Shown: positions 5,998 to 50,591 of the stretch, one piece after another
How positions within the stretch are numbered: the stretch's first letter is position 1
How the letters are laid out: each line of letters starts with the position of its first letter
From: a virus
Taxonomy: Duplodnaviria; Caudoviricetes
IMG/VR virus record: IMGVR_UViG_3300037467_003067
Coordinates: 192,001-256,000 of that record
Direction: 5' to 3' (one strand)
Length of the DNA: 64,000 nt
Notes under the pieces: generated by a model
What the model was told of the DNA's origin: nothing
Databases searched by the model: none
The model's input: only the letters and a program-made list of their open reading frames with translations
Program-made: the position numbers and the translations under genes

Positions 5998-6026
5998 TTT
6001 ACAGCCGCACAGTTTCACGTTAAGAT
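5998..6026 (+). promoter_or_regulatory. sigma70-like promoter for envelope operon
   Basis: TTTACA-17 nt-TAAGAT. Confidence 0.55.
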
Positions 6027-6083
6027 TAGAGAGCGATGTGGTTTGGAATTTTCGATGCTAAAACCCACGGGAGATTGTAGCAG

Positions 6084-7928
6084 ATGCGGAAATTTTGCTT
6101 GCTGTTAGGTTTGTTGGTTTTGACAGCCGGTGCTACTCACCCGCCTGTCAGTTCGGTTCGGCCCAAGCCGTCCGATTCCATCGATTTTCCCACGCTCATC
6201 TGGGGCGGGGACGTGGCGACACTCGCGGCGAACGGGGGACAGCAGACCACCCCGTCATCCTTCTGGGGTAAGGCGGGCGTCAAGGTCCGGTTAGTCCCCG
6301 GCGACGACTTCGACCAGCAGGTCAAGCGGTATCTCATAGGCGAGACACCGTTCCTGCGGGGTGAACTCGGTATGCTCGGGGCAAGGTCTGAGTTGCTCAA
6401 TGCCTCGCCTGCGACCAAACCAGTGATCCTCTATCTGATGACGTACTCGGCAGGCGGGGACTGCTTGGTCGCAGTCGATCCGATCCGCAACGTCAACGAT
6501 CTCAAGGCGGTCGACGGCAAGAAGAAACGGGTCGCCCTCCAGAAAAACGGTCCGCACATGAACTTATTCAACATCATCCTCACGAACGCTCACATGACGT
6601 GGGATGATGTTGAGGTGGTCTGGTGTAAGGACCTGACGGGTGATCCTGCCAAGGGCGACCATCCTGGTGCCAGGCTCCGACGAGGCGAAGCCGATGCCTG
6701 CTTCGTCATCAGTCCTGACATGATCGGTCTCACGACCGGACCCGGCAAGGTGGGCAACGGCAAGGAAGGGACGGTCAAGGGTGCTCGCGACATCCTCGAT
6801 ACCAAAACGTTGTCCCGTGGCGTCATGGACGTGTTCGCGGTTCGCAAGGACTTCTACGACGAGAACACCGACTACTGCAAGAAGATCACAGCCGGGTTCA
6901 TGCGAGGGACCTATGACCTCATGTCGGGGCAGGTCGACTATGACGCCAAGAAGAAGACCCCGGCAGCCAAGGCATACATCGATAACCTGACCCTTGCCAG
7001 GAAGTATTTCGGCGACGTGGTGATCCCGAACGTCGAGATCGAGGGCGTGGGCATGGTCCACGACGCCGAGTTCCAGGGCATTCCCGGCAACATCGCCTTC
7101 TTCCACGACAAGGGCAACCTGAACAACTTCGAGCGGATGCAGACGGAAGTCCTCAATCTCGCCAACACGCTCAAGTTCGCGACCAAGCGTTCCGGGTTCT
7201 TGCCGTCGCCGTGGGACTGGAAGGAGATCGCGAGCGTAGCAGGCGTCAAATATGACGAACCCAATCTGTCCAAACCGCGAATCGCCGAGAACATCGACCT
7301 GCTTCCCGGCGACGAATCGAAGTATAGTTTCACCGTCAACTTCGGCGTAGACCAGGACACTTTCAACGCCGACACCTACGGCAATGTCCTGGACGACTGT
7401 ATCAAGCTCGCGGCGAGCTATCGCAACGGCGTGGTCTTGGTTCGGGGACACACCGATATCTCGAAGACCTTGTTTGATCTCGTGGTCGTATTGCGAGAGA
7501 ATGGCGTCCTCAAGGAAAGCGGCAACGGCACAAACAAGCAATACTTCCTCAACGGCGAGCCGCTCAACCTCGGCAACACTGCCGCGATCACCAAGTTGAT
7601 CTCGGAAAGTACGTTTGAGGGCTTCCCGAGACAGGTCAACATCCGGGGCAAGCAGGTCCAGGTGGACAATCCCAAGGATGACGTGAGTGCGATGGACACG
7701 CTTTCGCGGCGACGTGCAGAGGCGTTTCGTGCTGCCGTGATCCAGCGTGCCAAGGACACCAAGGTCAATCTCGACGCCAGTCAGATTCAGATCACGGGGG
7801 TCGGGATTCGCGAACCGTTGGTCTCGCGACCGAGGAATCCGCAGCAGGCGATGCAGAACATGCGGGTCGAAATCCAGGTACGTGAGGTCGGGGGCGAAGC
7901 CCTCAGCCCCGAACTGTTCAATCCGTGA
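6084..7928 (+). CDS. Secreted NMT1/SsuA-like substrate-binding domain fused to OmpA-like C-terminal domain
   Basis: Signal peptide; TYSAGGD binding-protein motif; C-terminal VRGHTD..LSRRRA..NMRVEI. Confidence 0.75.
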   Translation: MRKFCLLLGLLVLTAGATHPPVSSVRPKPSDSIDFPTLIWGGDVATLAANGGQQTTPSSFWGKAGVKVRLVPGDDFDQQVKRYLIGETPFLRGELGMLGARSELLNASPATKPVILYLMTYSAGGDCLVAVDPIRNVNDLKAVDGKKKRVALQKNGPHMNLFNIILTNAHMTWDDVEVVWCKDLTGDPAKGDHPGARLRRGEADACFVISPDMIGLTTGPGKVGNGKEGTVKGARDILDTKTLSRGVMDVFAVRKDFYDENTDYCKKITAGFMRGTYDLMSGQVDYDAKKKTPAAKAYIDNLTLARKYFGDVVIPNVEIEGVGMVHDAEFQGIPGNIAFFHDKGNLNNFERMQTEVLNLANTLKFATKRSGFLPSPWDWKEIASVAGVKYDEPNLSKPRIAENIDLLPGDESKYSFTVNFGVDQDTFNADTYGNVLDDCIKLAASYRNGVVLVRGHTDISKTLFDLVVVLRENGVLKESGNGTNKQYFLNGEPLNLGNTAAITKLISESTFEGFPRQVNIRGKQVQVDNPKDDVSAMDTLSRRRAEAFRAAVIQRAKDTKVNLDASQIQITGVGIREPLVSRPRNPQQAMQNMRVEIQVREVGGEALSPELFNP

Positions 7929-7935
7929 GAAAACC

Positions 7936-8187
7936 ATGGCTGAGGTCGCACGTAATCGCCTATCGGCTGCGAGGGCAGCACTCAAAGAACTTGATGTTGC
8001 CCTCAACCATGACCGAAAGGCATACGCCCTGCTAGACAAAGTTGCCGAAGCAGGGCGGCAACTGCTCCAGCCAATCTTGGAAGGCAAGATGCCCTCGAAG
8101 TCGAATATCGACCGATTTCGAGGGGCAGTCCAAGAGGCTGAATTGTTCGAACCGACACAAGAACCATTACCCGATCCTGAGGATTGA
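7936..8187 (+). CDS. Hypothetical protein
   Basis: ATG start fills gap between operon genes. Confidence 0.6.
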   Translation: MAEVARNRLSAARAALKELDVALNHDRKAYALLDKVAEAGRQLLQPILEGKMPSKSNIDRFRGAVQEAELFEPTQEPLPDPED

Positions 8188-8188
8188 C

Positions 8189-9091
8189 ATGAGCCGAGTG
8201 AAATGGATCATCGTTTGCCTGTTGGCTTTATCTACACAGGCAATCGCCAAGGACACTTACGTGGTCGTGGTGGATGCCAGCGGGTCGATGGAAGAGCGGG
8301 ATATCCCGGTCAAGGGCGGCTACATGAGCCGGATGAATGTCGCCAAAGAAGCCCTGAAACGGGTCCTCGTCAACCTCCAAGGAGATGTCGATCTCGGGAT
8401 TGTGGTGTTCTCGGCAGGCAATCTTCAAAACGATTGGGTCTATCCCATCGGGAGAGTTGTTCGCGAGAAGGTCGCAGCAGCGATCGACTTGCCTTCGTCC
8501 TATGGTGGGACTCCGCTCGGCGATTACATCAAGATCGGTGCCGACCAACTCCTGGCGAAGCGGGCGAAGGCGGGCAATTCGGGGCGATATCGCCTGATCC
8601 TGGTGACCGATGGCGAAAGCAATGAAGGTCACGATCCCGCCGAATGGTTGGCTGAGGTCAAACGCAAGGGAATCGAAGTCGATTTGATCGGTTTAGCAAT
8701 GTCGTCGGAGCACGGACTTGCCCGTCAGGTCATATCGCTCCCGACTCCAGGGACCTATCAGAACGCTGCGAGCATGGAGCAGTTGGTGGAAGCGGTCGCA
8801 AATTCCACCAAGGAAGCTCCCGTGACCGCAAGCGGCGGGATCGATCCGGTGATCTTCGAAGAGATTGCCCCATTGCCCGACAAGGTCTCCGAAGCGATGA
8901 TCAAGACCATCTCCTACTACGACAATACACCGATCGGAGAACAACCTTCGACGGTCTCCGTGGATGACCAGGGCAATATCATCACGACCTCTGCTGCCGA
9001 CGAAGGCAGTAATTGGTGGATGATCGCCCTTGGCGTCCTGGTCGTCGTAGTCTTCGGGGTGATCGTCATCATGGTATTGTCGTCGCTCTAA
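8189..9091 (+). CDS. Secreted vWA-domain protein with C-terminal membrane anchor
   Basis: MIDAS DASGS, GGTPL, VTDGE; N-terminal signal, C-terminal TM. Confidence 0.88.
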   Translation: MSRVKWIIVCLLALSTQAIAKDTYVVVVDASGSMEERDIPVKGGYMSRMNVAKEALKRVLVNLQGDVDLGIVVFSAGNLQNDWVYPIGRVVREKVAAAIDLPSSYGGTPLGDYIKIGADQLLAKRAKAGNSGRYRLILVTDGESNEGHDPAEWLAEVKRKGIEVDLIGLAMSSEHGLARQVISLPTPGTYQNAASMEQLVEAVANSTKEAPVTASGGIDPVIFEEIAPLPDKVSEAMIKTISYYDNTPIGEQPSTVSVDDQGNIITTSAADEGSNWWMIALGVLVVVVFGVIVIMVLSSL

Positions 9092-9130
9092 CCTTCCGTC
9101 TCGCACCATGACCGATAAAGGGAGATCCTG

Positions 9131-10687
9131 ATGAAGAATATCAAGATTGCGGCGATTTGGATCTGTTTCGTTGTACTTCCGATTGCGGTCGTGGTGCGAT
9201 ATTACGTGATGCCCAAGCGGGCTGAACGGGTCGCCCAAGAGCAGCAACAACAAGGACGACAGAAGGTAGCGGCGACCGGGGCGAGATCCCACTATGACAA
9301 GAAGATACGCATCGTCCTGGACAGTTTCTCGGGATATTGGGCGTTTCGATCGCCTGAATTTGCCCGACAACTCGGAGGATTCGGGATCATGCCCGAACTC
9401 TACGACGACGGGGCGAACTATCCGGGTAGATACGCATTGCTTCAGTCGGGCGGAATCGATGCCGCCGTCTTCACGGTCGACGCTTACCTCAGCACGGCTG
9501 CGAAATTCGCCGAGAAGAACCCCGACGCCACCCTCGACCAGAAGTTGCCAGGGACAATCGCCTTGGTGATCGATGAGACCAAAGGGGCGGATGCCTTGGC
9601 GGGGTACAAGGCAAAGTATCCCAATATCGACAGCCTCAACAAGCCCGATACCAAGTTCGTCCTCACGCCCAATTCGCCCAGCGAAGCTCTGTCTCGCGTG
9701 GTCTTCGGTTACTTCAACCTGAACCGGGTCGACCGCAATAAGTGCTTCGTCCACACCAAATCATCGACCGAGGTTTACGAGATCGCTCGCAAAGCCAAGC
9801 CCGACGCCTCACAGGTCTACGGCGTCTGGGAACCAGACCTCTCCAAATTACTCCAGAATCCGAATATCCACGTCATTGTGGACAGCAGCCGATTTCGCGG
9901 GTATATTGTGGATGTCCTCCTGTTCAACCGGAACTTCCTGATCGAGAATCACCAGACAGCCAAGGATGTCATCGTTGCCTATCTCCGAACCCAATACGAA
10001 CGAAGAAACATGCTTCCCCAGGCTGTCAAAAGCGATGCCCTGCTCGCCTCCAATCTGTCCCTGAGCGACCAGCAAGCGAATCGCACGGTCCAAGGCATCT
10101 GGTGGAAGAACACGAGCGAAAACTATGGACACCTCGGAGTCACGACCGATTCGTCGCTCCAGAACATCGAGAATATCATCCGTCAGAATGCGGATATTTT
10201 GATCAAATCTGGGGCGATCGATTCCGACCCGTCCGAAGGACAACCGAACTACCTCTACTACCCCAAGATCCTCCAGGAATTGAAGGATGAAGGCTTTCAT
10301 CCCGGAGTGTCCACGGATTCGGCTGAGGAAACGGTCCGTGCAGAGAAGATATTGCCAGAGTTGAACGAAGATCAGTGGAATGCTCTCCACAAGATCGGGA
10401 CGCTGAAGATCGATGAATTGGTCTTCGCGAGGGGCAGCAGCGAGTTGACTGAGAATGCCAAGGGCAATTTAAACAAGTTGGCGGAAAGCCTGAGAGCCTG
10501 GCCGACCTACTACGTGACCATCCAGGGCAACAGTGCCGACGACCGGGAACTGGCACTGGAACGAGCCAGGACGGCTGAGGCTTACTTGGTCGACAAAGGG
10601 ATTGAACGAAGTCGAGTCCGCGCACTTGCTGGGAAACCGACCGGTGCGACCAGGGTGACGTTTACCTTGGGACAGCAGAGTTATTGA
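9131..10687 (+). CDS. Membrane-anchored substrate-binding domain/OmpA-like fusion
   Basis: N-terminal TM; DETKGADA, WEPD; C-terminal FARGSSEL..IQGN..LALERA..RVTF. Confidence 0.78.
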   Translation: MKNIKIAAIWICFVVLPIAVVVRYYVMPKRAERVAQEQQQQGRQKVAATGARSHYDKKIRIVLDSFSGYWAFRSPEFARQLGGFGIMPELYDDGANYPGRYALLQSGGIDAAVFTVDAYLSTAAKFAEKNPDATLDQKLPGTIALVIDETKGADALAGYKAKYPNIDSLNKPDTKFVLTPNSPSEALSRVVFGYFNLNRVDRNKCFVHTKSSTEVYEIARKAKPDASQVYGVWEPDLSKLLQNPNIHVIVDSSRFRGYIVDVLLFNRNFLIENHQTAKDVIVAYLRTQYERRNMLPQAVKSDALLASNLSLSDQQANRTVQGIWWKNTSENYGHLGVTTDSSLQNIENIIRQNADILIKSGAIDSDPSEGQPNYLYYPKILQELKDEGFHPGVSTDSAEETVRAEKILPELNEDQWNALHKIGTLKIDELVFARGSSELTENAKGNLNKLAESLRAWPTYYVTIQGNSADDRELALERARTAEAYLVDKGIERSRVRALAGKPTGATRVTFTLGQQSY

Positions 10688-10704
10688 CACAGGGAGTGGG
10701 TGGT

Positions 10705-11430
10705 ATGGATTTCAAGTGGAACCTTCGGTTTGTCGCGGACCTTTTCAGCACACCTCAGTGCTTGGTGCCTCTGACATTGGGAGCCGTGGTCGTACTCTCG
10801 GGGTGGGCGATCAGTACGACCACGGTGATCGGATTAGGATTCGCCATCATGGGGATTGGGACCGCACTCGGGTTGACCCGCCTCATCAACGACCGGGAAG
10901 CCTTGGTCAAGGGCTTCCTGGCACGGGAGCGACAGGAAAAGATCGCCCTAGACGAGGCTCGACTGGTGGCTCTTGCGGAACAGTTGAAAAACTTTCCCGG
11001 CAAGGAAATCCGCCAGTGTTTGCGTGACCTCCGGGCGCTCAAGCTGTCGTTCGAGGAATCGATCGCCCAGCAAGATATCGCCAACTTCATTGATGAAGAT
11101 TTCCGAAACAAGTTCACTTCGCTGTTCTGGAAATCCATCGATATGATGGACAAGGCGGTTCGCCTGCAGAAGACGGCAGCAAACATGACGAACAAGGACG
11201 GCATTTATGCCGCTCGGGACAAGATTATTGGGGAGGTCGAAGAAAACACGGTCGCCCTGAGACAGAGCTTCGAGGGACTGACGGTTCTCGCTTTGACCCA
11301 CGACGAGGGAGCCTTGGACAATCTGAGGCAGGATTTAGATAGCAAATTGTCGGTGGCGACGGAGGTCGAAAACGAGTTGCGGGGAATCGGCAAGAGCGTG
11401 GTCGACGAGGGAATGAAGGAATACCTCTGA
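10705..11430 (+). CDS. Two-TM protein with helical C-terminal domain (XpaC-like architecture)
   Basis: Two hydrophobic helices then coiled coil. Confidence 0.6.
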   Translation: MDFKWNLRFVADLFSTPQCLVPLTLGAVVVLSGWAISTTTVIGLGFAIMGIGTALGLTRLINDREALVKGFLARERQEKIALDEARLVALAEQLKNFPGKEIRQCLRDLRALKLSFEESIAQQDIANFIDEDFRNKFTSLFWKSIDMMDKAVRLQKTAANMTNKDGIYAARDKIIGEVEENTVALRQSFEGLTVLALTHDEGALDNLRQDLDSKLSVATEVENELRGIGKSVVDEGMKEYL

Positions 11431-11437
11431 ATTCCTG

Positions 11438-11466
11438 TTAACATTCCTGCCGTTATGTGATAGAAT
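11438..11466 (+). promoter_or_regulatory. sigma70-like promoter with extended -10
   Basis: TTAACA-17 nt-TAGAAT with TG. Confidence 0.6.
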
Positions 11467-11508
11467 GTTTTTCCAAGGGCGATTTCAAACAATACTAGGA
11501 GAAGACAG

Positions 11509-12450
11509 ATGTTCCGGTTTTTCGGATCGATTTTTCGGTGGGTGGGGCTGAAGCTGGGTCTCGTGAACAGCAGCATCGACGCGGCGAATGACCGTCTGCT
11601 CAAGAAGAACCCGGAATTGCTCCGTCGCGAGGGGCAATTGGCGCAGGAGGAATTGAAGGCGAATTATCGCGATCTCCACAAGGTGATCGCGGGCAAGGTC
11701 GCCTCCCGGAATCAGAAGGATGAGCGAATCCTAGCCAATACCAAGCGACTTGGCTTGGTCGCGAAAGCCAAGTCGGGTCAAATCACGACCAAGAATGGCA
11801 AGGACCGGATCGAGCAGATCGGGTACGATCTCTCGCAGTTGTCGACCGCTCGTACCAACGCGACCAAGAAACTCAAGGAAGTGGCGAACCGACTTGGCGT
11901 GACCGACACGAACTCCCCGGCTGCCCAGAACGATCCGGAATTCCTCCAGCACAGGACCGCATTGTCGAACTTCCTCCAGAAGGAGAAGGACCTGAAGAAC
12001 GAGCTCGACCAGATCGAGGCGAACTTGAGGTCTGACATCGAAACCGACACGACCGCAGTCAACAAGCTCAAGGGACAGTTGTCTCACGACAAGACCCGCT
12101 TGGAGAAGATGGAGCGGGACATCAACAACATCCCCGGTCAGATCGAAGAAGCCATCAACGAAATCATGGGCGCTGAGGAAGCCAAGCGACAGAACGAGAT
12201 CCTCAGGTCGATCGACACGTCCAACGCCGAGAATCGTCTGGCGAACATCGACCGCCTGAAGAAGACGGCGGTCGCAGAGGGCGAAGTCGCCAACGAGATG
12301 GCATCGCCCGTTCATCTTGACAGCGAGTACCTCAACTACACCAACTCGTCGGACGTGGACGACGAGATCAACGCCCTCCTCTCGGTGGGCAACACGACCA
12401 CCGCCGACAACGAAAAGACCGCCGAGGTCGACCAGTTGCCAGAAGGTTGA
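11509..12450 (+). CDS. PspA/IM30-like coiled-coil protein
   Basis: Amphipathic N-terminal helix MFRFFGSIFRW, long coiled coil, C-terminal 'DVDDEINALL'. Confidence 0.6.
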   Translation: MFRFFGSIFRWVGLKLGLVNSSIDAANDRLLKKNPELLRREGQLAQEELKANYRDLHKVIAGKVASRNQKDERILANTKRLGLVAKAKSGQITTKNGKDRIEQIGYDLSQLSTARTNATKKLKEVANRLGVTDTNSPAAQNDPEFLQHRTALSNFLQKEKDLKNELDQIEANLRSDIETDTTAVNKLKGQLSHDKTRLEKMERDINNIPGQIEEAINEIMGAEEAKRQNEILRSIDTSNAENRLANIDRLKKTAVAEGEVANEMASPVHLDSEYLNYTNSSDVDDEINALLSVGNTTTADNEKTAEVDQLPEG

Positions 12451-12459
12451 TCAGACCAG

Positions 12460-12501
12460 CACTGAGGTATACAGACAGCCGGATGCCTCAGTGTCCTTTT
12501 T
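12460..12501 (+). terminator. Hairpin/terminator-like element
   Basis: CACTGAGGTAT / ATGCCTCAGTG followed by T run. Confidence 0.45.
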
Positions 12502-12542
12502 AGGCTGGAACCGAACTGCTTCAAGACAAGAGGTCGAATCCG

Positions 12543-13664
12543 ATGAAACGTCAGTGGTACGCAATTACGGCAATCTTGATCGTTGGTCTGGTGGGATGCG
12601 GTGGGACCAATCCTGCCGGGCGTCCGGCACCGAAGCCTGAGACCACGGCTCAGAATGATGCCCCCGTGGTTCGGACGCTTGCCAACAGCGACTACCCAAG
12701 TTGGCAGGTCTTCGATGTCGCCCACAAGCTGGGTCTGGTCGACAAAGACCAGGGCAAGCTCACCGACTTGGAACGGAAGTACAACGTGGACTTCGTCCTC
12801 CGTCGCGGCGACTATACCGAGACCATCAGCATGTATGGCTCGGGAGCGGTGGATGCGGTGACCATTACAAACACCGACATCCTGGCACCGGCGTTGACGC
12901 GAGAGGCAGTCGCGATCTTCCCGACCAGTACGTCGCAGGGAGCCGACGCCTGCCTCGTGACCGGCATCGAAAAGATCGAAGACTTGAAGGGCGTGCCGAT
13001 CTATGGTGCCGAGAAATCGGTCTCCGAATACGCCTTCCGACGCCTTGCCAGCAAACACGGGCTTGAGTCCAAGGACATCGTCTGGAGGAATATGGACCCG
13101 TCGGCAGCCGCGACCGCGATGATCCAGAAGCAGAACGGCATCAACGCGATCATGGTCTGGGAGCCGCAGGTGGAAGAGGTCCTTAACCAGCGGAAGGATG
13201 CCAAGGATATCTTCAATTCCAGCGAGATTCCCGGCGAGGTCATCGACATGGTCGTGATGGGTAGGGACTCCTATGAGTCGCCGGGCGGCAAGGAGTTCGC
13301 GACCTTCCTGGCAGACGTCTACTACCAGACTTGCCGGAAGATCAACACCGACGACAAGGCGTTGACTCAATTGGGCGAGGATTTCGCCCACCTGGACGCC
13401 GAACAGATGAAGGTCGTGCGGTCCAAGTGCAAGTTCTTCGACACGCCCGAGCAGGGGATCGCCGTCTTCAAAGCCCCAACTTTTCCCGACGCGATGAAGA
13501 TGATCAGCCAGTTCAGTAAGGACCGCGACATCATCGCCAAGAACCCGATCGTGTCCTATCTTGACCCGTCCGGAATGGGCATCTATCCGGCGAAGGCGGA
13601 TACCAAGCCACCGGTCCCTAACTTGTCCTTCCTGACCAGCGTCATGGGACAGTTGGCTAAGTGA
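12543..13664 (+). CDS. ABC transporter substrate-binding lipoprotein (NMT1/SsuA/TauA family)
   Basis: Lipobox LVGC; DYTETISMYGSGAVDAVTITNTD, SQGAD, WEPQ, IPGEVIDM motifs. Confidence 0.85.
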   Translation: MKRQWYAITAILIVGLVGCGGTNPAGRPAPKPETTAQNDAPVVRTLANSDYPSWQVFDVAHKLGLVDKDQGKLTDLERKYNVDFVLRRGDYTETISMYGSGAVDAVTITNTDILAPALTREAVAIFPTSTSQGADACLVTGIEKIEDLKGVPIYGAEKSVSEYAFRRLASKHGLESKDIVWRNMDPSAAATAMIQKQNGINAIMVWEPQVEEVLNQRKDAKDIFNSSEIPGEVIDMVVMGRDSYESPGGKEFATFLADVYYQTCRKINTDDKALTQLGEDFAHLDAEQMKVVRSKCKFFDTPEQGIAVFKAPTFPDAMKMISQFSKDRDIIAKNPIVSYLDPSGMGIYPAKADTKPPVPNLSFLTSVMGQLAK

Positions 13665-13685
13665 TCGTCGGTTCTCACTAACCTC

Positions 13686-13720
13686 AGCCCCGTTCTAGCC
13701 TGGACTAGAACGGGGCTTTC
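13686..13720 (+). terminator. Intrinsic terminator/stabilising hairpin
   Basis: 13-bp stem AGCCCCGTTCTAG/CTAGAACGGGGCT. Confidence 0.7.
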
Positions 13721-13734
13721 TCAATCAAGGACCA

Positions 13735-14652
13735 TTGACGGCAATGACTGCTTACAAGAAGCGAATCCATCGAGTCGCTAGCCCTTGGAACATCCGCCAG
13801 GCGATTTCCCTGCCAACGAGAGTGTTTCTCCAACTTGCGGGAATTGCGACCGTCATCGGTCTTTACTCCCTGATGAGTCAGCACCAGCATCAAGTCAATC
13901 CCAACGACACAACCGTCCCCAATTTCAGTCAATTTGTAGAAGGCTTCAAGACAATCACGGAAATCCGGTACGACGGCAACTCCTGGATCGTCACCGACAC
14001 CGCTGCGACCTTCGGACGACTAGCCAAGGGCATGATGATCAGTTTCGCCCTCTCCGTAGTCATTGGAACTCTGATGGGTTGTTACGAGGCAGTAGAATGC
14101 TATTTCGGGCTAATCGTCTCGGCGATGGCGAAGGAACCGGCAACTGCCATGCTTGCCGCCTTCTTCGTCCTGCTCGGGACCGGAGAGTCGCTGTATGTTG
14201 GCGTGGTGGTCTTTGGCACGTTGCCATGGATGTCTCAAGCTATATTCGAATCGGTCCGACATGACGTCCACCGCAATTCGATCAATAAGATGATCACGTT
14301 TAATGCCAGTCCATGTGAACAGATATACAACTTGGTTTACAAGAGGATTTTCCCCAAGATCATCGACTCGACCCGGATCGCGACCTCAGCCGCCATGATC
14401 GGTCTGCTCGCTGCCGAGATGCAAGTGGGCGACGTCGGCTTCGGCTACCGCATGAAAATCAACAGCCGTCGCCTGGACATGAGCGTGGTCTACCTCTACC
14501 TGACGATCCTCGTCCTGATCGGGTATTCGATCGACTACGCCTTCACTCAGTTCCGGATGTACTGGTGTCCCTGGTACGGTGAACAAAAAGAAAACAGGAC
14601 ATCTTGGGTTTCCATGCTGTTCTCTAGGTTCAAGAATCGGAGCAGGTCGTGA
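13735..14652 (+). CDS. ABC transporter permease (TauC/SsuC family)
   Basis: Multiple TMs, AAEM..GFGY motif. Confidence 0.85.
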   Translation: MTAMTAYKKRIHRVASPWNIRQAISLPTRVFLQLAGIATVIGLYSLMSQHQHQVNPNDTTVPNFSQFVEGFKTITEIRYDGNSWIVTDTAATFGRLAKGMMISFALSVVIGTLMGCYEAVECYFGLIVSAMAKEPATAMLAAFFVLLGTGESLYVGVVVFGTLPWMSQAIFESVRHDVHRNSINKMITFNASPCEQIYNLVYKRIFPKIIDSTRIATSAAMIGLLAAEMQVGDVGFGYRMKINSRRLDMSVVYLYLTILVLIGYSIDYAFTQFRMYWCPWYGEQKENRTSWVSMLFSRFKNRSRS

Positions 14653-14885
14653 AAAGAATAGCCCCAGCAAGCTTATGCCATCAATTACTTTTGGTAGCAT
14701 GTATGATCGACATTCTCACCTGTTGGTGTCAATTTCGATCGACGACAAGCTGCCAGGTGCTTTCTTACGTCGCATACGCTTTGCTCATCATCGGGATCGC
14801 AATCTTGCCCGATAACAGACCCCTCATTATTCAGCTTGAATACAAAAGGAAAGAGACCGACAATGTCATTGAAGCCGATTCTTGA
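14649..14885 (+). CDS. Small membrane protein
   Basis: Two hydrophobic segments; overlaps both neighbours. Confidence 0.4.
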   Translation: MKRIAPASLCHQLLLVACMIDILTCWCQFRSTTSCQVLSYVAYALLIIGIAILPDNRPLIIQLEYKRKETDNVIEADS

Positions 14886-15846
14886 GATCGAGGGTCTCTC
14901 CCATTCCAGGAACGGAGTGCCGGTCCTCAACGACATCAACCTCAAGATCATCCAAGGCGAGACGGTCGCGATCGTCGGTCCGAGCGGTTCGGGCAAGTCC
15001 ACCTTGCTCGACATCCTCATGGGAACCATCTCCCCCACACAGGGCGAAATCTACGTAGACAACGTCAAGGTAGTCGAGCCATCCCGAGACCGAGGCATCG
15101 TCTACCAGAAGTATACCTTGCTCGACCACGAAACTGTAGAAATGAATGTGGCAATTGGTCCGATCCTGGAAAAGACCAATTTGCCGCAACGCTTCCTCTG
15201 GTCCTTGAAAGACAAGCCGATCAAGTTCCTGAGGAAACTCAGGATCGGATCGGGCTGGAAGACCCTGGAAGATCCCTACCTGATAGAGAGTCACGTCTGG
15301 CTCTCCAAGGTGGGATTGAGCCATGCGGCGACTCGCTATCCGTCCCAACTCTCGGGCGGTATGCAGCAGCGATGCGCCATTGCTCAATGTATGATCATGA
15401 GACCAAAAATCCTTCTCATGGACGAACCCTTCGGCGCGCTCGACCCCAAGACGCGGCACGACTGTCAGCGGATCATGCTCGACATCGCTCAGGAGAATAT
15501 CGACGCGGTGGCAAACGACAAGGAGCCGCCCGTCACGGTTATCTTTGTGACCCATGATCGGGCTGAGGCGATCAAGATCGCCGACCGGGTGATCGCCATC
15601 TCTCAGTTTCACCCCGACGGAGAAAACGGGGCGACGATCGTCTTCGATGCGGCAACCCCGAATTTCGATCCCAAGAATCCCGTGACCTTCGATTTTCCCA
15701 AAGCCATGATGATGGAGGAAGATATCACGGCTGCAGCCATGGACCCGATGAACAATGGGGTCAAGAAACAGTTCCATACCTTTTGGCGGGACGTGGAACT
15801 CGGGAGTGTCAAGGGGATTTTCGCAGGCAAAAAAATGACATTTTGA
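14863..15846 (+). CDS. ABC transporter ATPase (TauB/SsuB family)
   Basis: GPSGSGKS, LSGGMQQR, LLMDEPFGALD, FVTHD. Confidence 0.93.
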   Translation: MSLKPILEIEGLSHSRNGVPVLNDINLKIIQGETVAIVGPSGSGKSTLLDILMGTISPTQGEIYVDNVKVVEPSRDRGIVYQKYTLLDHETVEMNVAIGPILEKTNLPQRFLWSLKDKPIKFLRKLRIGSGWKTLEDPYLIESHVWLSKVGLSHAATRYPSQLSGGMQQRCAIAQCMIMRPKILLMDEPFGALDPKTRHDCQRIMLDIAQENIDAVANDKEPPVTVIFVTHDRAEAIKIADRVIAISQFHPDGENGATIVFDAATPNFDPKNPVTFDFPKAMMMEEDITAAAMDPMNNGVKKQFHTFWRDVELGSVKGIFAGKKMTF

Positions 15847-15922
15847 TGACATTGGTGTTGTGAAATGCCAATGTCGTTGTTATAGTATTCCCTGCTGATG
15901 TTCAAGCCAAAGGATTCTTCCA

Positions 15923-16228
15923 ATGAATGCGGAAATGATTCTCAGCGGCGTCACGGCAAAATTCGCCGGATACACCTTGCTCACAACTCTTGGATTATGC
16001 CTTGCGGCTCTGGTCTTCGCGGGGGTCGCCAGTCTCATTGTCATGATGTGGGACGATGTGGGGCGGTATATCAAAGGCAAAAGGACCGAGTCTCAGCAAG
16101 ATATGGTCAAGAGAGAGATCGTCATTGCCAAGTCCAAGATCGATCTTCTTTATGAAGAGAACCGGTTGAGGGAATTGCTTGAGAAACGTGAAACGCAGTA
16201 TCGTCAGATTGAGGCATCGAAGAAGTAG
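15923..16228 (+). CDS. Membrane protein with coiled coil
   Basis: One TM plus charged helix. Confidence 0.6.
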   Translation: MNAEMILSGVTAKFAGYTLLTTLGLCLAALVFAGVASLIVMMWDDVGRYIKGKRTESQQDMVKREIVIAKSKIDLLYEENRLRELLEKRETQYRQIEASKK

Positions 16229-16254
16229 CTCTGCTCTGGACGAAGGGGGTTTTG

Positions 16255-16839
16255 ATGAACGCAAAGACACGTGCGGAATTGATTCAGTTGGTGCGGCGGG
16301 ACGCGCTCAAGGTTGGCGCATTCAAGCTCGCCAGCGGGAGAGAATCCCACTACTACCTCGATTGCCGGAAGATCACGCTCTCTGCTGAGGGATCGCATAC
16401 GGTGGCAACCGCGATCTGCTCAGCACTTCGCAACCAGCAGGTCGATGCGATCGGCGGATTGACCATGGGCGCAGATCCGATCGTCGGGGCGGTCCTGGCA
16501 CTCTCAGCACCCATCAGGACCAAGCCGCTCCGGGGCTTCCTCGTTCGCAAGGAAGTCAAGGGGCATGGTCTGGGGCGGTTGATCGAGGGGACTTTGCGTG
16601 ACGGCGACCGTGTCGCCATCATAGAGGATGTCACGACCACGGGCGAGTCCGCGTTGCGTGCTGCCAAGGTGGTTCAGGAGGTCGGAGGCATCGTAGATGT
16701 CGTGATCTCCATCGTGGATCGCATGGAAGGTGCCGACGAGACCTTCGCGTCGCATGGCTTGGCATTCCAGCCATTATTGACTATTCGTGAGTTGGGCGTC
16801 GAACCCCAGGTTTTTTCAGCGACTCAGGTTGCCGGTTGA
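16255..16839 (+). CDS. pyrE: Orotate phosphoribosyltransferase
   Basis: FKLASGRESHYYLDCR, VRKEVKGHG, IIEDVTTTG PRPP motif. Confidence 0.95.
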   Translation: MNAKTRAELIQLVRRDALKVGAFKLASGRESHYYLDCRKITLSAEGSHTVATAICSALRNQQVDAIGGLTMGADPIVGAVLALSAPIRTKPLRGFLVRKEVKGHGLGRLIEGTLRDGDRVAIIEDVTTTGESALRAAKVVQEVGGIVDVVISIVDRMEGADETFASHGLAFQPLLTIRELGVEPQVFSATQVAG

Positions 16840-16849
16840 GGGCTTTGTC

Positions 16850-18778
16850 ATGTCAACGAAAACGGAATTTGTCGATATGCCGATGATTCCGGCTCTCCCG
16901 GCTCCCGAGCCGAAGCCGGACGTGCCGACCTATGAGTTCATCAAAGAACTCACGACCGCCATGAAGAGCGGTTCGAGTCGGAGCTTGATCCTCTCGGGCA
17001 GCGTCCAAGACCTCTTCTTCTCCAAGACAAAGTCCAAGGAGAGCTACGTCCCCCTCGTGTCGCTGCTCATCGACAAGTTTTCGTTCGACAACAAGGTCAA
17101 CGTGGGCGGCGAGGAAGTCAAACTCGCTATCCTCCAACTCGACCTCAATGACGGTATCCGGTTCCTGAATGGGTGTGAAACCTCCGTGGTCGATATGTTC
17201 GTCGCCTGGCAGATCGGTCTCAAGAAAGTCGAGCATCTGCCCGCCGCGTCGAAAACCACGATGGCGAAAGTCCCCGGTCCGACCAACCCCAGCACGAAGG
17301 GTGGCAGCCTCGAAGCAAGCCGCAAGTCCATCGTGGACACGCTCTATGCCAACCTCCGAGAAGCCCGCAACAACTACGGGACCGCCCTGCAGATCCTTCG
17401 CCGATTCGTCGAAGCCTCGCAGTTCACCAATGGTCCAAAGCTGTTGATCATCATCGAGGGTGCCGACCTGATCGTGCCAGCCGGGGGCGACCTTGCCACC
17501 TTGCCGACTTCCATGGTCCGTAAACTCGGCATCTTGGAAAGTTGGTTCTCTGACCCCGATTTCATGGACGGCAAGAGTACCGTCGTCATGTTGGCGGATT
17601 CGATGTCGGCGATCCATCCGCGAGTAACTCGGCTGATGCAGATCACGAACATCGAAGTGCCAGCGCCGAGCCTGAATGACCGCTGGCACTTCATCGACCA
17701 CTACTACCAGTCGAAGGGGAAAACCACTCAGAACAACCCCAAGGAATTCGCCGAAGAGACAGCCGGATTGTCCATCCATTCGATCCGGCAACTAATCGTG
17801 TCCCAGATTGCCTTGGATGAGACCAAGCCGATCCCATCCAAGGCAATCTCGAAACAAGTGTCCGAGTTCCTCAAGTCGCAACTCGGGGAATCCATCAAAT
17901 ACTACAAACCCAATCACAAGCTCGACGCGGTCAGGGGCAACCGCAAATTGAAGGTTTACGGTAAGGACGAACTCATTCCGCGACTCCAGTCCAAAAATTC
18001 CAGCGCCTTGCCAGCAATGGTCATCACGGGTCCGATCGGCGTCGGCAAGACCTTCTACATCGATGCGATTGCGGCTGAGATGGATTGCCCAGTCCTAGAA
18101 CTCGGCAATATCCGTAGTCAGTGGTACGGCGGCACCGACATCATCCTCGATAAATTGGAACGCCTACTCTGGGTCATCCCCAAAGTCCTGATCATGGTGC
18201 CGGAAGCCGATACGGCATTCGGCGGGGTCGACAAGGGAATCCATGATACTGAACGGCGGTTAACCGGCAAGATACAGTCCCTCATGTCCAATCCGGGTCT
18301 GAAAGGAAAGGTTTGTTGGGTCTTGGATACCGCCCGCGTCGACCAACTCAGCCCCGACATCCGGCGTCCAGGTCGAGCCGACCTGATCATTCCGATGTTT
18401 GATCCCGACGATGAGGACCGCAAGGATTTCGTCGATATGCTCTTCGACAAAATCCCTCAACTGAAGACCGCCGAAGCGATGACCAGTCTGACCTCGATAA
18501 CCAAGGGATTCTCTGCAGGTCTCTTCGGCGCGATCCGAGGGCGAATCCAGTCGGCGATCGACCAGGGCAAGATGGAATCCCTGGACCAATTGATCTGGAT
18601 CGTGAATGACACCATGGTCCCGGATATCACGACGGATCGAAGGGTGCAAGAATTGAACGCCCTCTTGAACAGCACCAGTCGGTCACTCCTGCCCGACATC
18701 TACCAGAATGGCGACATGAGTCAATACCGAGAGAAGTGGGCGAATGAGATCAAAGCCTTGAAGGGAAAAAGTGTGTGA
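16850..18778 (+). CDS. AAA+ ATPase with degenerate N-terminal AAA module
   Basis: Walker A GPIGVGKT, variant Walker B IMVPEAD, RRPGR arginine finger. Confidence 0.82.
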   Translation: MSTKTEFVDMPMIPALPAPEPKPDVPTYEFIKELTTAMKSGSSRSLILSGSVQDLFFSKTKSKESYVPLVSLLIDKFSFDNKVNVGGEEVKLAILQLDLNDGIRFLNGCETSVVDMFVAWQIGLKKVEHLPAASKTTMAKVPGPTNPSTKGGSLEASRKSIVDTLYANLREARNNYGTALQILRRFVEASQFTNGPKLLIIIEGADLIVPAGGDLATLPTSMVRKLGILESWFSDPDFMDGKSTVVMLADSMSAIHPRVTRLMQITNIEVPAPSLNDRWHFIDHYYQSKGKTTQNNPKEFAEETAGLSIHSIRQLIVSQIALDETKPIPSKAISKQVSEFLKSQLGESIKYYKPNHKLDAVRGNRKLKVYGKDELIPRLQSKNSSALPAMVITGPIGVGKTFYIDAIAAEMDCPVLELGNIRSQWYGGTDIILDKLERLLWVIPKVLIMVPEADTAFGGVDKGIHDTERRLTGKIQSLMSNPGLKGKVCWVLDTARVDQLSPDIRRPGRADLIIPMFDPDDEDRKDFVDMLFDKIPQLKTAEAMTSLTSITKGFSAGLFGAIRGRIQSAIDQGKMESLDQLIWIVNDTMVPDITTDRRVQELNALLNSTSRSLLPDIYQNGDMSQYREKWANEIKALKGKSV

Positions 18779-19698: not shown

Positions 19699-20300
19699 TG
19701 TCTTATCTCCCCACAGTAAAAAACAGAAAAAACAAAGCCGTTGAGCCGGATCGAAACCAGCAAATTGTTGCAAAGTACACCAGGTCCGACTCGACGGCTA
19801 TAAGGTCATATCCTAAAGCACAATTTGTCAGTGTGTACAGGATCACACGCCATGCCCGAGAACGATATCTCCAGAGATTTTCCAACTTATCGAAATACAA
19901 ACACATTGATTCTTGTCCTCAAAGAGATACCTGCAAGCACTGCCATTCCCTTCGCATCGCCCTCAAGCAACTCGCCGATGACCAAAGGTTCGAGGTCGAC
20001 AAGGAAATTGAACGACGGATCAACCAAGCCAAAGAAGAACGCTCTTATATCAATAATACCGAACTGATGCTTCGCCTCTGGGAAGAGTACGGCTACGATT
20101 CAAGATTCCGGTTCCTGAGAGATCAGGATGCCGTGTTCGTCATCGGTCAGAATGGTCCGATCCAGACTGTTATCACGGTATTACCCATGGGGTCTCCGAT
20201 CGGGAAACAAATCTCTGTTCATGTCAAATTCCGCAAGAAAGACAAAGGACGGCTTCCTCAACCAGAACCCGAAGAAGAAACTTACATTGCCGACAGGTGA
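19698..20300 (+). CDS. Hypothetical protein
   Basis: ITRHARERYLQR..VITVL motif reminiscent of RelE-like folds. Confidence 0.6.
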   Translation: MSYLPTVKNRKNKAVEPDRNQQIVAKYTRSDSTAIRSYPKAQFVSVYRITRHARERYLQRFSNLSKYKHIDSCPQRDTCKHCHSLRIALKQLADDQRFEVDKEIERRINQAKEERSYINNTELMLRLWEEYGYDSRFRFLRDQDAVFVIGQNGPIQTVITVLPMGSPIGKQISVHVKFRKKDKGRLPQPEPEEETYIADR

Positions 20301-20307
20301 CCCAAAG

Positions 20308-21513
20308 ATGCCAAATACTTCTCTTGACGGGATGATTGCACACCTGACCAAGGGAGCGAGGATCGAGACCAACTACAACGAGTTTCGTGACAAGCTCGCC
20401 GAAGGTCGACCATTGGTCGTGAAGTACGGCATCGATCCCACAGGGGTCGATGTCCATCTGGGTCATACCGTGCCCTTGCGTATTCTCCGGAGATTCCAGG
20501 AAGCCGGTCATCAGGCAACGATCATCATCGGTGACTTCACCGCACAGATCGGAGACCCAAGTGGTCGTAATGAGACCAGACCTCCATTATCTCGTCAGCA
20601 GATCAACGAGAACATGAAGGGCTACCTTTCGCAAATCGGCAAGTTCATCGACATGTCCAAGGTCAGGACGTTCTACAACTCCACCTGGTGTCACCGTATG
20701 CGGTTGGTGGATGTCCTCGCCGAATTCGCGCCCATAACCGCACAAAGAATGCTCGACCGCGACGACTTCTCCAAGCGGCTCAAGGAACAACAGCCCGTCT
20801 ACCTCCATGAATTCATCTATCCTGTGATCCAGGGCATCGACTCAAGAGAAATACACGCTGACGTAGAACTCGGCGGCACGGAACAACTCTATACTCTCTT
20901 GATCGCCAGAGATATCCAGCAACGCGCCGGACAACCTCAACAAACCTGCATCACGGTGCCGATCCTCCGGGGACTCGACGGCAAAAGAAGGATGGGCAAG
21001 TCCCTCAAGAACTATGTCGGGATCAATGACAGTCCTGCCGACGTGTTCGGCAAGACGATGAGCATTCCCGATGAATTGCTTCAGGAATGGTACGATCTCC
21101 TCACTGACCAAACATATAATCCCGAAAAGCACCCGAAAGGACAGAAACTCGCCCTTGCCTCCATCCTCGTCACGCAAATCTATGACAAGGAGACGGCGGC
21201 AAAAGCACAAGAAGATTGGGAGACGCAATTTTCCAAGAAGCAAGATCCCAGCGAGATTACCGAAGTCGTAATCCCGCCGCAGGAAATGTCCATCTGTCAT
21301 CTTTTGGTGGCGAGTCAACTTGCTGCCAGTCTCAGTGAAGCAAGACGTGCCATCATCCCCAACCCAAAGACAGATGGAGATGGTTCCAAGAGTAGCGTGA
21401 CACTCGGTCCCGATCGCACGAAGATCCTTGATCCCAAGACAGTGGTTGCGATCGAGGACAATATGATCCTGCGATTGGGCAAAAGGAAGATTGTCCGCAT
21501 TCGAACCAAGTAA
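20308..21513 (+). CDS. tyrS: Tyrosyl-tRNA synthetase
   Basis: GIDPT..HLGH, IGDPSGR, RMGKS, C-terminal S4 domain; start moved to MPNTSL. Confidence 0.95.
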   Translation: MPNTSLDGMIAHLTKGARIETNYNEFRDKLAEGRPLVVKYGIDPTGVDVHLGHTVPLRILRRFQEAGHQATIIIGDFTAQIGDPSGRNETRPPLSRQQINENMKGYLSQIGKFIDMSKVRTFYNSTWCHRMRLVDVLAEFAPITAQRMLDRDDFSKRLKEQQPVYLHEFIYPVIQGIDSREIHADVELGGTEQLYTLLIARDIQQRAGQPQQTCITVPILRGLDGKRRMGKSLKNYVGINDSPADVFGKTMSIPDELLQEWYDLLTDQTYNPEKHPKGQKLALASILVTQIYDKETAAKAQEDWETQFSKKQDPSEITEVVIPPQEMSICHLLVASQLAASLSEARRAIIPNPKTDGDGSKSSVTLGPDRTKILDPKTVVAIEDNMILRLGKRKIVRIRTK

Positions 21514-36258: not shown

Positions 36259-36409
36259 CATTAAGGGAAATCATGAGGGTCAACGATGACCCTCGTGATA
36301 ACCACAGCGACGTGGTCCGAGACGAAGTCGTCTCATCATAATCTAAATCAAAACGTGAACTTGAACTTGAACGTCAGCGAAACATTTGCCTCCTGTAGGA
36401 CCAATTTCC

Positions 36410-37681
36410 ATGGAACGTGTTTTGAGTGAGCCTCGCCCCGACTGGCAGTCGATTGTCGAAGGGCAGGGATTGTTCTTCCATACTGCGGAAGGAATCCAGT
36501 ATTGGGATGAACATGTTTTCTACGATTTTTCAGCCGCCCAGATCGACGTGATCGAGCAAGCCACCAACGACCTCAATGAGAAGTGCCTGGAGACGGTCCA
36601 GTACCTCGTGGACAAACGGGACGAGACCTTCCCTAAATTCGGCATCCCGGAAGAATTCTGGGACTTCGTCTGTGAGTCTTGGGACGAAGACGAGCACACG
36701 CTCTATGGTCGCTTCGACTTCGCTTACGACGGAGTCGCCGCGCCCAAGCTCCTGGAATACAATGCGGACACGCCGACCAGCCTCCTGGAAGCAGCCGTGA
36801 TCCAGTATTACTGGCTCCAGGACATGTTCCCCCGTCACGACCAATTCAACAACATCCACGAGCGACTGATCGAGGCGTTCGAGCGGATCAGGAACGACCG
36901 GGAACTCGGACCGAATGAGTCGCAAGGTGCCAGCGGGGCTGTGCTGTCCGACTGGCAAAAATCTTGTACCCCCAAGGCGGGGACACCGTTCTATCTGACC
37001 TCGCTGAGCCAGGATGACTCGGTCGAAGATTACATGACAGCGACCTATCTCCGCGACCTGGCAACTCAGGCGGGATTGGACGCTCGGTATTTGCCGATCG
37101 AGTCGATCGGCTTCGGCGACGACTCGCCCTTCTTTCGCGACGGCGGGGATGAGATCGCCCACATCTTCAAGCTGTACCCGTGGGAGTGGCTGGTCCGAGA
37201 GGAATTTGGTCGCAACCTGCTCAATTCCAAGACCGAATGGTACGAGCCTGCCTGGAAGATGCTCCTGAGCAACAAGGCGATCCTGCCGTACCTGTACGAT
37301 CTCTTTGGGGATTCGCCCTACATCCTCAAGTCGAGCTTCGACCAGAACGATTTCGGCGACACGTGGGTCCGGAAGCCGATCTTCTCCCGCGAGGGTCAGA
37401 ACATCATGATCGTGAAGAACGGTCAGATGATCGCAGACACTCGGGGCGAATACGGCGAGTTCCCGGTGATCTACCAGGACTACACGCCGCTTCCGATCTT
37501 CGCAGGCAATACCCCCGTCGTCGGATCGTGGATGGTCAACGGATATGCCTGCGGCATTGGTATAAGAGAGACAGAAGGTATGGTGACCAACAACACCAGC
37601 CGGTTCGTGCCGCACCGGTTCACCCCGGCTGCCGTGAAGGGGTCATTCGGCAGCATTCGCAAGAAGCTGCTCGGCAAGTAA
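36410..37681 (+). CDS. Glutathionylspermidine synthase-like ATP-grasp (YgiC/YjfC family)
   Basis: YGRFD, LLEYNADTPTSL, FKLYPWE, SNKAIL, KPIFSREG, FVPH. Confidence 0.92.
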   Translation: MERVLSEPRPDWQSIVEGQGLFFHTAEGIQYWDEHVFYDFSAAQIDVIEQATNDLNEKCLETVQYLVDKRDETFPKFGIPEEFWDFVCESWDEDEHTLYGRFDFAYDGVAAPKLLEYNADTPTSLLEAAVIQYYWLQDMFPRHDQFNNIHERLIEAFERIRNDRELGPNESQGASGAVLSDWQKSCTPKAGTPFYLTSLSQDDSVEDYMTATYLRDLATQAGLDARYLPIESIGFGDDSPFFRDGGDEIAHIFKLYPWEWLVREEFGRNLLNSKTEWYEPAWKMLLSNKAILPYLYDLFGDSPYILKSSFDQNDFGDTWVRKPIFSREGQNIMIVKNGQMIADTRGEYGEFPVIYQDYTPLPIFAGNTPVVGSWMVNGYACGIGIRETEGMVTNNTSRFVPHRFTPAAVKGSFGSIRKKLLGK

Positions 37682-49730: not shown

Positions 49731-50591
49731 TCAGTTGGAGTGATCGGACATCAAAAGAGTCAAACACTTGCAGGCACCACCCGACTTCATGAACTGGTCC
49801 ATAGGCGTACTGTACGTCTTGAACCCGTAGAACGTCGTCAGATGGCTTTCGACGGCTTCACAGCCGCTCGGGAGGATGACGTGGATGGAATCTCCATCCC
49901 GCATCGCTACCGCATTACAGGCGAACCGCTTCGCTTCTTGGTCATCGACCGGGACGAATCGGAATCCCGGAGCGTTCTTCGGAACATCCGTCGTCGGGAG
50001 TTTGATCTTGCTAAACGAGTTCAGGGTCTCGGGCGAGAACGCTCCGGGGTGATACAAGATCGTGTCATCGTCCAGCGGACAGAAACACGTATCGAGATGG
50101 TAGAAGTAAGGATCAATCAGGTCGCACAAAATCAAACTACGAAGTCCCAAGAAATCCATGATATCATGGGCGACTCGCTTATTGGTCCTGAATCCAGTCC
50201 CTAGGAACAAGGTGTCCTTGACCACGAAGGCATCCCCAGCACCTTCGAAGTGGACCTCTGGTACGAAGACATCATATCCCTGGTCCTGGAAGAACTTCTT
50301 GAAGTGCTTTTCCTCCTGCTGGCGTTCGGCGTGCTTGAACCGAGAAAGTACGACTTTGTTGTTGTGGAAGAGACCGGCGTTGGCTGTGAAGCAGAGGTCG
50401 GGGAGGTTGGGAATCGGTTCGACATATTCCACGTAGCTACCCAGCCGTAGGATCAAGTGATGGAGGTCGATCCACTGCTTGATTGCGGCGGCGTTGTTGG
50501 GCTTATTCTTCTCGGGGTCCATCCAGGGGTTGATGGTGTAGGTCACATCGAAGTAACTCGGACGGCACATCAAAAGCTTACGATTAAACAT
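49731..50591 (-). CDS. Amidinotransferase/DDAH family (pentein) enzyme
   Basis: INPWM, FTANAG, FEGAGD, FYHLDT, KSGGACKCL. Confidence 0.9.
   Translation of the reverse strand: MFNRKLLMCRPSYFDVTYTINPWMDPEKNKPNNAAAIKQWIDLHHLILRLGSYVEYVEPIPNLPDLCFTANAGLFHNNKVVLSRFKHAERQQEEKHFKKFFQDQGYDVFVPEVHFEGAGDAFVVKDTLFLGTGFRTNKRVAHDIMDFLGLRSLILCDLIDPYFYHLDTCFCPLDDDTILYHPGAFSPETLNSFSKIKLPTTDVPKNAPGFRFVPVDDQEAKRFACNAVAMRDGDSIHVILPSGCEAVESHLTTFYGFKTYSTPMDQFMKSGGACKCLTLLMSDHSN

Follow-up and report, generated by a model that had tools for sequence, protein, structure and literature searches.

PspA and Vipp1 proteins are now accepted as bacterial relatives of ESCRT-III. Vps4 is the ATPase partner in the ESCRT-III comparison, and a Vps4-like ATPase appears to be absent from bacteria according to a 2025 review (PMC7619361). 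The closest described system to the one analysed here is an operon class catalogued by Ravi et al. in 2024 (mSystems, PMC11237479). It combines PspA with a transmembrane (TM)-anchored divergent "Snf7" protein, an inactive and a classical AAA+ ATPase, an ATP-binding cassette (ABC) ATPase, a permease, and a protein of the architecture SIG+PBPb+OmpA. The class is exemplified by OGG56892.1 from Candidatus Handelsmanbacteria, and ATP-dependent membrane remodelling tied to solute transport was predicted as its function (PMC11237479). A block of nine genes related to this class is located at approximately 6084-18778 on the + strand of a viral DNA window, the whole stretch of 64,000 nucleotides that was analysed (positions 192,001-256,000 of IMG/VR record IMGVR_UViG_3300037467_003067). 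The block, whose proteins are named W1 to W8 and W10, represents a conserved envelope operon of bacteria in a copy carried by a phage.

Phages with pspA have also been described. In the accessible part of a preprint by Yuan & Chen (October 2026, 10.64898/2026.10.24.761521), pspA is reported from 184 huge phages, of which 34 come from soil. Complete ABC transporters adjoin 15 of the pspA genes, and 10 pspA genes have a "2-TM transporter substrate-binding protein" as neighbour. That part of the preprint makes no mention of an AAA+ ATPase, of OmpA fusions, of the operon found in bacteria of the Planctomycetes-Verrucomicrobia-Chlamydiae (PVC) group or of the class of Ravi et al. An earlier sequence-only reading of this DNA, made without database searches, did not know the block as a described phage system. 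This view had to be given up: the operon class had been catalogued with the same functional guess (PMC11237479), and the preprint places pspA beside ABC transporters in 15 huge phages. The block is a further example of a published operon class and of a published phage-pspA association, and no new kind of system.

Comparison with Described Systems

Like the class of Ravi et al., the block encodes on one strand a PspA-like protein, a TM-anchored helical partner, an ABC ATPase, a permease, and a binding-protein/OmpA fusion. The inactive and the classical AAA domain are also present, in this order in a single polypeptide, W10. Three components of the phage block and its PVC relatives are additions to the published class: a second binding-protein/OmpA fusion, which is secreted; an exported von Willebrand factor A (vWA) protein; and a free-standing lipoprotein binding protein. 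The phage block further differs in its gene order, in its location in a phage, and in the replacement of the Walker B Asp of W10 by Pro. Apparently new, as far as the comparison goes, may be the three components of the PVC form, the Walker B Pro, the loss of the AAA+ ATPase and of C-terminal tails in phage LR756511, and the co-occurrence pattern of W5 and W10.

A simpler cassette is present in Bacillus phage G, where gp243 to gp250 lie on one strand and include a permease (gp243), an ABC ATPase (gp245), a TM coiled-coil protein (gp247), and two NMT1 + OmpA/MotB fusions (gp249 and gp250). The cassette differs from the block in lacking a vWA protein and a free binding protein, and an AAA+ homologue was not found at E 1e-10. 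The host of phage G is Gram-positive, and identity to the window is only 21-32%. No match was obtained for gp246, gp247, and gp248 with the W4, W5, and W10 profiles, Pfam or the PDB. By eye, gp247 resembles a TM-anchored PspA, which was not confirmed. Two other candidate systems were considered and dropped. The FtsZl1/vWA/OmpA system of Makarova & Koonin 2010 (PMC2875224) was rejected on the lack of any FtsZ-like or GTPase gene in the block. The Bat operon (BatA/BatB vWA proteins) was rejected on weak vWA matches and the lack of MoxR and DUF58.

Composition and Phage Origin of the Block

The region 6084-15846 contains eight open reading frames (ORFs), W1 to W8, all intact and all on the + strand (Table 1), as the sequence-only reading had described for a single co-oriented block. 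Its extent of about 10 kb was correct for these eight genes but too short for the system, since the AAA+ ATPase gene W10 had been overlooked. Five of the eight proteins (W2, W3, W6, W7, and W8) were identified directly with Pfam, NCBIfam, and PHROGs. The parent contig has a length of 298.6 kb, is estimated to be 59% complete, and is labelled "provirus" in IMG/VR. A protein identical to W10 (P0124) is recorded on four contigs, the longest of 585,064 bp; because of this identity the full phage genome is probably about 585 kb, roughly twice the length of the record.

The source is an uncultured giant soil phage, and the block belongs to the phage because phage genes are found on both sides and because the same block occurs in phage LR756511 and in related phage contigs. 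To the left are genes for SbcCD and ribonucleotide reductase (RNR); to the right follow tyrosyl-tRNA synthetase (TyrRS), a tRNA array, a helicase, methyltransferases, homing endonucleases, and a polymerase. The terminase large subunit is encoded at 56.5 kb of the contig. Host contamination, misassembly, and parts that are not conserved together had been raised as doubts with the sequence-only reading; they are answered by the phage flanks and by a gene order shared among phages.

Table 1. Positions of the block genes and of further features, in window coordinates except for the Pnkp-like genes, which are given for the contig locus named
Feature	Position	Strand	Description
Promoter-like match	5998..6026	+	sigma-70-like, TTTACA-17-TAAGAT; upstream of W1; consensus match only
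W1	6084..7928	+	secreted binding-protein-like domain + OmpA-like peptidoglycan-binding domain
W2	8189..9091	+	exported vWA protein, C-terminal TM anchor
W3	9131..10687	+	N-terminal TM anchor, SsuA/NMT1-like binding domain, OmpA-like domain
W4	10684..11430	+	2-TM hairpin + cytoplasmic helical bundle; likely start 10705
Promoter-like site	11438..11466	+	TTAACA-17-TAGAAT, with TG; upstream of W5; consensus match only
W5	11509..12450	+	divergent PspA/IM30-like; N-terminal amphipathic helix, long helical hairpin, C-terminal ...LPEG tail
Terminator-like hairpin	12481..12496	+	followed by T run; between W5 and W6
W6	12543..13664	+	lipoprotein (LVGC lipobox) substrate-binding protein, NitT/TauT type
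W7	13735..14652	+	ABC importer permease, BPD_transp_1; TauC/SaoP-like
W8	14836..15846	+	ABC ATPase; Walker A, LSGGM, Walker B
Promoter consensus match	15858-15886		consensus match only
Phosphoribosyltransferase-like phage gene	16252..16839	+	between W8 and W10; not of the bacterial operon
W10	16850..18778	+	tandem AAA+ ATPase; 663-codon ORF 16787-18778, likely start 16850
Pnkp-like gene, L084	16862-17833		
Pnkp-like gene, L085	16983-17912		
Pnkp-like gene, L088	19499-20431		
Pnkp-like gene, L089	17785-18756		

Relatives in Phages and Bacteria

A nucleotide search of phage records with the block gave no match, and neither did a scan of IMG/VR with single proteins; a profile scan of IMG/VR found seven loci. 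The order of the eight genes W1 to W8 is preserved in phage LR756511 (595 kb; 23-42% identity) and in the seven IMG/VR contigs. Five of these seven (L085, L087-L090) have the helicase, the polymerase, and other non-operon genes in common with the present genome. Five related viral contigs, drawn from both viral groups, have a Pnkp-like gene (AAA_33 kinase + PNK3P/HAD phosphatase) between the genes for the ABC ATPase and the AAA+ ATPase, where the window has its phosphoribosyltransferase-like gene. The shared insertion hints at common viral ancestry or at exchange between phages. In phage G, an AAA_33 kinase-like gene, gp242, is found just before the permease gene.

The bacterial scan used one genome per species and yielded 263 relatives, from which 80 loci were kept. 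Nearly all are from Planctomycetota, and a few are from Verrucomicrobiota, Kiritimatiellae, and Victivallales. By tblastn and clustering, the whole operon was found in the same order in most bacterial loci with enough flanking sequence, and the gene order recurs in dozens of PVC genomes. The bacterial type of the module, as proposed in the sequence-only reading, was supported by this recurrence. The W10 gene was recognized as an operon member in bacteria by ORF clustering of 90 related loci, where it either precedes W1 or follows W8. For W3, homologues with about 40-45% identity number in the hundreds, and no bacterial copy exceeds 45%.

The gene tree broadly tracks taxonomy, as expected of a cellular operon. 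The window clusters with L085, L088, and L089 in the concatenated tree (SH-aLRT 94), and LR756511 together with the 436-kb contig L084 is placed beside Pirellulales (99). Although the tree shows two viral groups, a single viral clade was not rejected by the approximately unbiased (AU) test (p 0.33). Variants of the locus were seen in Pirellula (L022-L029, L032-L035, L047, and L050-L055): an acyltransferase gene (PF01553) stands in place of the upstream W1 and W2, W7 and W8 are unrecognizable, and an unnamed protein of about 312 residues follows W6.

Wall-tethered Proteins and the ABC Importer

The topology of W1 to W4 and of W6 was predicted by simple hydropathy analysis and inspection. W1 has a signal peptide, followed by a divergent SsuA/NMT1-like domain (phrog_25518) and an OmpA-like domain. 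The profile of the W1 orthologues matches the OmpA-like domain of Acinetobacter baumannii Omp38 (3td3, E 1.8e-5). Between the GHSDP and LS..RA motifs of this domain lie about 70 extra residues. This is the long insert ascribed to the first fusion; it was found in all bacterial orthologues and is a family trait. W3 has a TM segment at residues 4-22 and an OmpA domain that matches PF00691 at 37.6 bits. Homology of the binding domains was established with hhalign, which linked the W1 family to the W3 family (E 1.4e-6) and the W3 family to the W6 family over the binding domain (E 3.6e-10). The three binding domains of the SsuA/NMT1 family, two of them fused to OmpA-like domains, were confirmed in this way.

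The ORF of W2 opens at position 8042, and the ATG at 8189 is the likely start. The protein consists of a signal peptide, a vWA domain (PF00092, 2.2e-12, 48 bits), and a TM segment at residues 328-346. Its metal ion-dependent adhesion site (MIDAS) is intact as DASGS (residues 78-82), GGT, and TDG, and the site is conserved in 41 orthologues. The anchored vWA protein with intact MIDAS stands as it had been described.

W6 matches TIGR03427 with an E value of 4.7e-42 and SsuA_fam with 1e-12. It has no solved relative by phmmer and hence offers no clue to its ligand. The presence of a permease and an ATPase, as first noticed, was upheld by domain searches: W7 matches BPD_transp_1 at 25.8 bits and is TauC/SaoP-like (2e-17), and W8 matches PF00005 at 111.8 bits, with intact motifs. 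The latter is NtrCD/TauB-like and has an insert of about 35 residues in its helical subdomain. With the SsuA/NMT1-fold binding protein W6, the permease W7, and the ATPase W8, the set for an importer of the NitT/TauT type is complete.

The two TM helices and the helical bundle of W4 agree with the 2-TM helical protein of the sequence-only reading. Its C-terminal tail is acidic and aromatic. We take W4 to be the equivalent of the protein that Ravi et al. describe as "TM + divergent Snf7"; its homology to Snf7 is putative. A fold search (VIA wide) returned generic helical matches, the best of them to designed helical repeats (Z 11.8). An Atlas lead to PspM/Rv2743c had a score of only 0.88.

PspA-like Protein and Tandem AAA+ ATPase

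W5 was assigned through its family. A profile built from 27 orthologues retrieved Vipp1 and PspA chains first in the PDB (E 4e-5), with residues 68-249 in register with 31-213. PF04012 (PspA_IM30) is the commonest Pfam family among the orthologues, with matches in 7 of the 27 and a best E value of 3.5e-5. The family has an amphipathic N terminus, MF.AIGRYFRA, and ends in a conserved tail, DDEFDALIGL...LPE(A/G). The AlphaFold2 (AF2) model of W5 is a long helical hairpin with a predicted local distance difference test (pLDDT) score of 77. W5 is PspA-like at the level of the family profile and is not a member of PF04012. The PspA/IM30-like and ESCRT-III-like coiled coil of the sequence-only reading is therefore valid for the profile of the family but not for a direct match of the protein.

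W10 consists of two AAA domains. The N-terminal domain is degenerate (NSGQSRS..GN..D) and has neither a Walker A motif nor GK[ST]. The C-terminal domain is a classical AAA domain with GPIGVGKT and, as RRPGR, the second region of homology (SRH) motif. The best PDB matches are to VAT/Cdc48 D2 (1e-18), and Vps4 was matched over the AAA core only (7e-8). No MIT domain was found in W10, the N-terminal half being the degenerate AAA domain. The Walker B motif reads MVPEADT, with Pro in place of Asp at codon 451 (CCG, window 18200-18202). Asp was found in 100 of the 101 W10 homologues with a readable motif (VDEADT); Pro is shared only by the closest relative of W10, P0125 (56% identity). Because this relative has Pro too, the replacement is not a sequencing error.

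The pair of proteins resembles ESCRT-III and Vps4 in several respects. W5 has a helical hairpin, an N-terminal amphipathic helix, and a C-terminal tail, and is encoded near a classical AAA ATPase with an SRH motif. Unlike Vps4, W10 has a dead AAA domain where the MIT domain would be, and VAT/Cdc48 D2 is the better match.

A W10 gene was found only in loci with a W5-like gene (22 of 22). In 13 loci with ample flanks, W5 and W10 are jointly absent and W1 to W4 and W6 to W8 are retained. The distribution across loci suggests that the block has two separable sub-modules, a wall-tethered ABC part and a PspA-AAA part. Planctomycete clades with neither W5 nor W10 within 5-8 kb on either side include L006, L009, L012, L014, L016, L020, L025, L060, L067, L071, and L073, among others. 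LR756511 has no AAA+ homologue anywhere in the record, and the otherwise conserved C-terminal tails are missing from its copies of W5 and W4 (L001 11505-13020). L084, the nearest relative of LR756511, retains both tails and the AAA+ ATPase. The joint loss, a single case, would fit a role of the tails as handles for the ATPase. Genes for Cpn10 and DnaJ follow directly after the ABC ATPase gene in LR756511.

Proposed Function

The predicted arrangement of the proteins spans the envelope. In the periplasm, the secreted and the membrane-anchored binding-protein/OmpA fusions are predicted to grip peptidoglycan, next to the anchored vWA protein and the lipoprotein binding protein. The permease and the 2-TM protein W4 are predicted to lie in the membrane, and the ABC ATPase, W5 with a membrane-binding N-terminal helix, and W10 in the cytoplasm. 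The best explanation, to which we assign a probability of roughly 0.6, is that the phage expresses the operon to keep the membrane and the envelope of its host working during a long infection, with a PspA-like protein recycled by an AAA+ ATPase and an importer coupled to the wall. The host cytoplasmic membrane would be kept sealed and energized, and the envelope would stay coupled. W5 would polymerize on stressed membrane, perhaps docked on its 2-TM partner W4, and W10 would recycle the W5 polymers by acting on the conserved tails at their C termini, in the manner of Vps4 and ESCRT-III. Through the vWA protein and the binding proteins tethered to the wall, the ABC importer would be held at the wall, or the wall would be sensed. 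The periplasmic proteins would anchor both the inner membrane and the importer to peptidoglycan, W2 serving as a bridge through its MIDAS, and the importer would bring in a small solute. Repair, exclusion of superinfection, and import of a nitrogenous solute, the roles suggested by the sequence-only reading, are conjectural.

In a more far-reaching version, W10 would be the functional bacterial counterpart of Vps4 that grips the tails of W5 and W4, and the phage would bring a complete ESCRT-like machine with a wall-tethered scaffold to reseal or reshape the host membrane. We regard this version as doubtful.

Several observations weigh against the proposed maintenance of the host envelope. W5 alone gave no match to PF04012 even at E 10. 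In fold searches (Foldseek pdb, VIA wide), its similarity to Vipp1 (Z 9.4) and PspA (Z 9.3) was level with that to many unrelated coiled coils. W4 gave no Snf7 or PspA signal, either in hhalign against the W5 family (probability 1%) or in a PDB profile search. The Asp-to-Pro change in Walker B may cripple W10 in this phage. For the co-occurrence of W5 and W10, no more than three phylogenetically independent contrasts are available, and the test is not significant. The TIGR03427 score of W6 is 144 bits, compared with an equivalog cut-off of 334, and the solute is not assignable. The block has a GC content of 0.557, compared with 0.493 ± 0.020 for the contig, of which it is the most GC-rich 12.7 kb; this outlying composition may reflect a fairly recent capture. 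Finally, no experimental work on the operon class was found in the literature.

Alternative Explanations

Among the rival explanations, the block may serve chiefly as an auxiliary set for nutrient uptake. Import of a small nitrogen- or sulphur-containing solute through the NitT/TauT-type ABC importer would then feed replication, and the other proteins would be inherited accessories. The complete importer, with its intact ATPase motifs and its lipoprotein binding protein, speaks for such a role. So does the persistence of the core of ABC, binding-protein, and W4 genes in the 13 bacterial loci that lack W5 and W10, as do the loss of the AAA+ ATPase from LR756511 and the retention of the ABC genes with two binding-protein/OmpA genes in phage G. 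Against it, this phage lineage has kept all nine genes intact at a divergence of about 40%, two of the three binding domains are tethered to the wall instead of being free to pass solute to the permease, and no ligand can be assigned. We consider uptake as the chief purpose unlikely.

Less probable again is a role in conflict, in which the block would guard against abortive-infection effectors that depolarize or perforate the membrane, or would alter the envelope to bar other phages. PspA systems are responsive to damage of the membrane, also in the course of phage infection (review PMC7619361), and this giant phage is rich in other host-takeover genes. However, no defence or anti-defence family was matched in the searches made, which did not include PADLOC, and across PVC bacteria the operon shows the vertical inheritance of an ordinary cellular one.

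Very improbable is the reading in which the block is host sequence within a chimeric or proviral contig, or was acquired recently and does nothing for the phage: the "provirus" label and the composition (third-position GC, GC3, of 0.73, with single genes at 0.69-0.81, compared with 0.58 for the rest of the contig) would suit it, but the block starts about 198 kb into the contig, far from both ends, has the phage genes described above on both sides and phage genes (phosphoribosyltransferase, Pnkp) interleaved within it, recurs in LR756511 and in related phage contigs with common flank genes, and has no bacterial copy of more than 45% identity, and a functionless passenger is unlikely because the block is conserved across phage lineages. 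The reading that we prefer over these three remains the maintenance of the host membrane and envelope.

Other Features of the Region

The host-type promoters of the sequence-only reading are present as sequence matches at three positions (Table 1), but they are matches to the consensus only. In the region, 11 promoter-like sites were counted, compared with 5.6 ± 2.1 in shuffles. The TyrRS gene (PF00579, 4e-65), at window positions 20128-21513, follows shortly after the block and ahead of the tRNA array. A glutathionylspermidine synthase-like gene is located at 36386-37681 (phrog_6215, 2e-117). The replication region contains the helicase gene at 47929-49353 and DNA methyltransferase genes at 45295-46497 and 50584-51564. 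Among the replication genes are two paralogous HNH homing-endonuclease-like genes at 46529-47929 and 52354-53364 (- strand).

Implications

The AAA+ ATPase matters as the component that gives the analogy to ESCRT-III and Vps4 its meaning. The operon class puts a classical AAA ATPase beside a PspA-like protein, and giant phages retain the whole set, which is therefore probably useful in the infected cell. The module is small enough to clone. If W10 were indeed a counterpart of Vps4, the block would offer a compact nine-gene system for the reconstitution of ATP-driven PspA dynamics. As the module shows, very large phages carry multi-protein envelope machinery that goes beyond single auxiliary genes.

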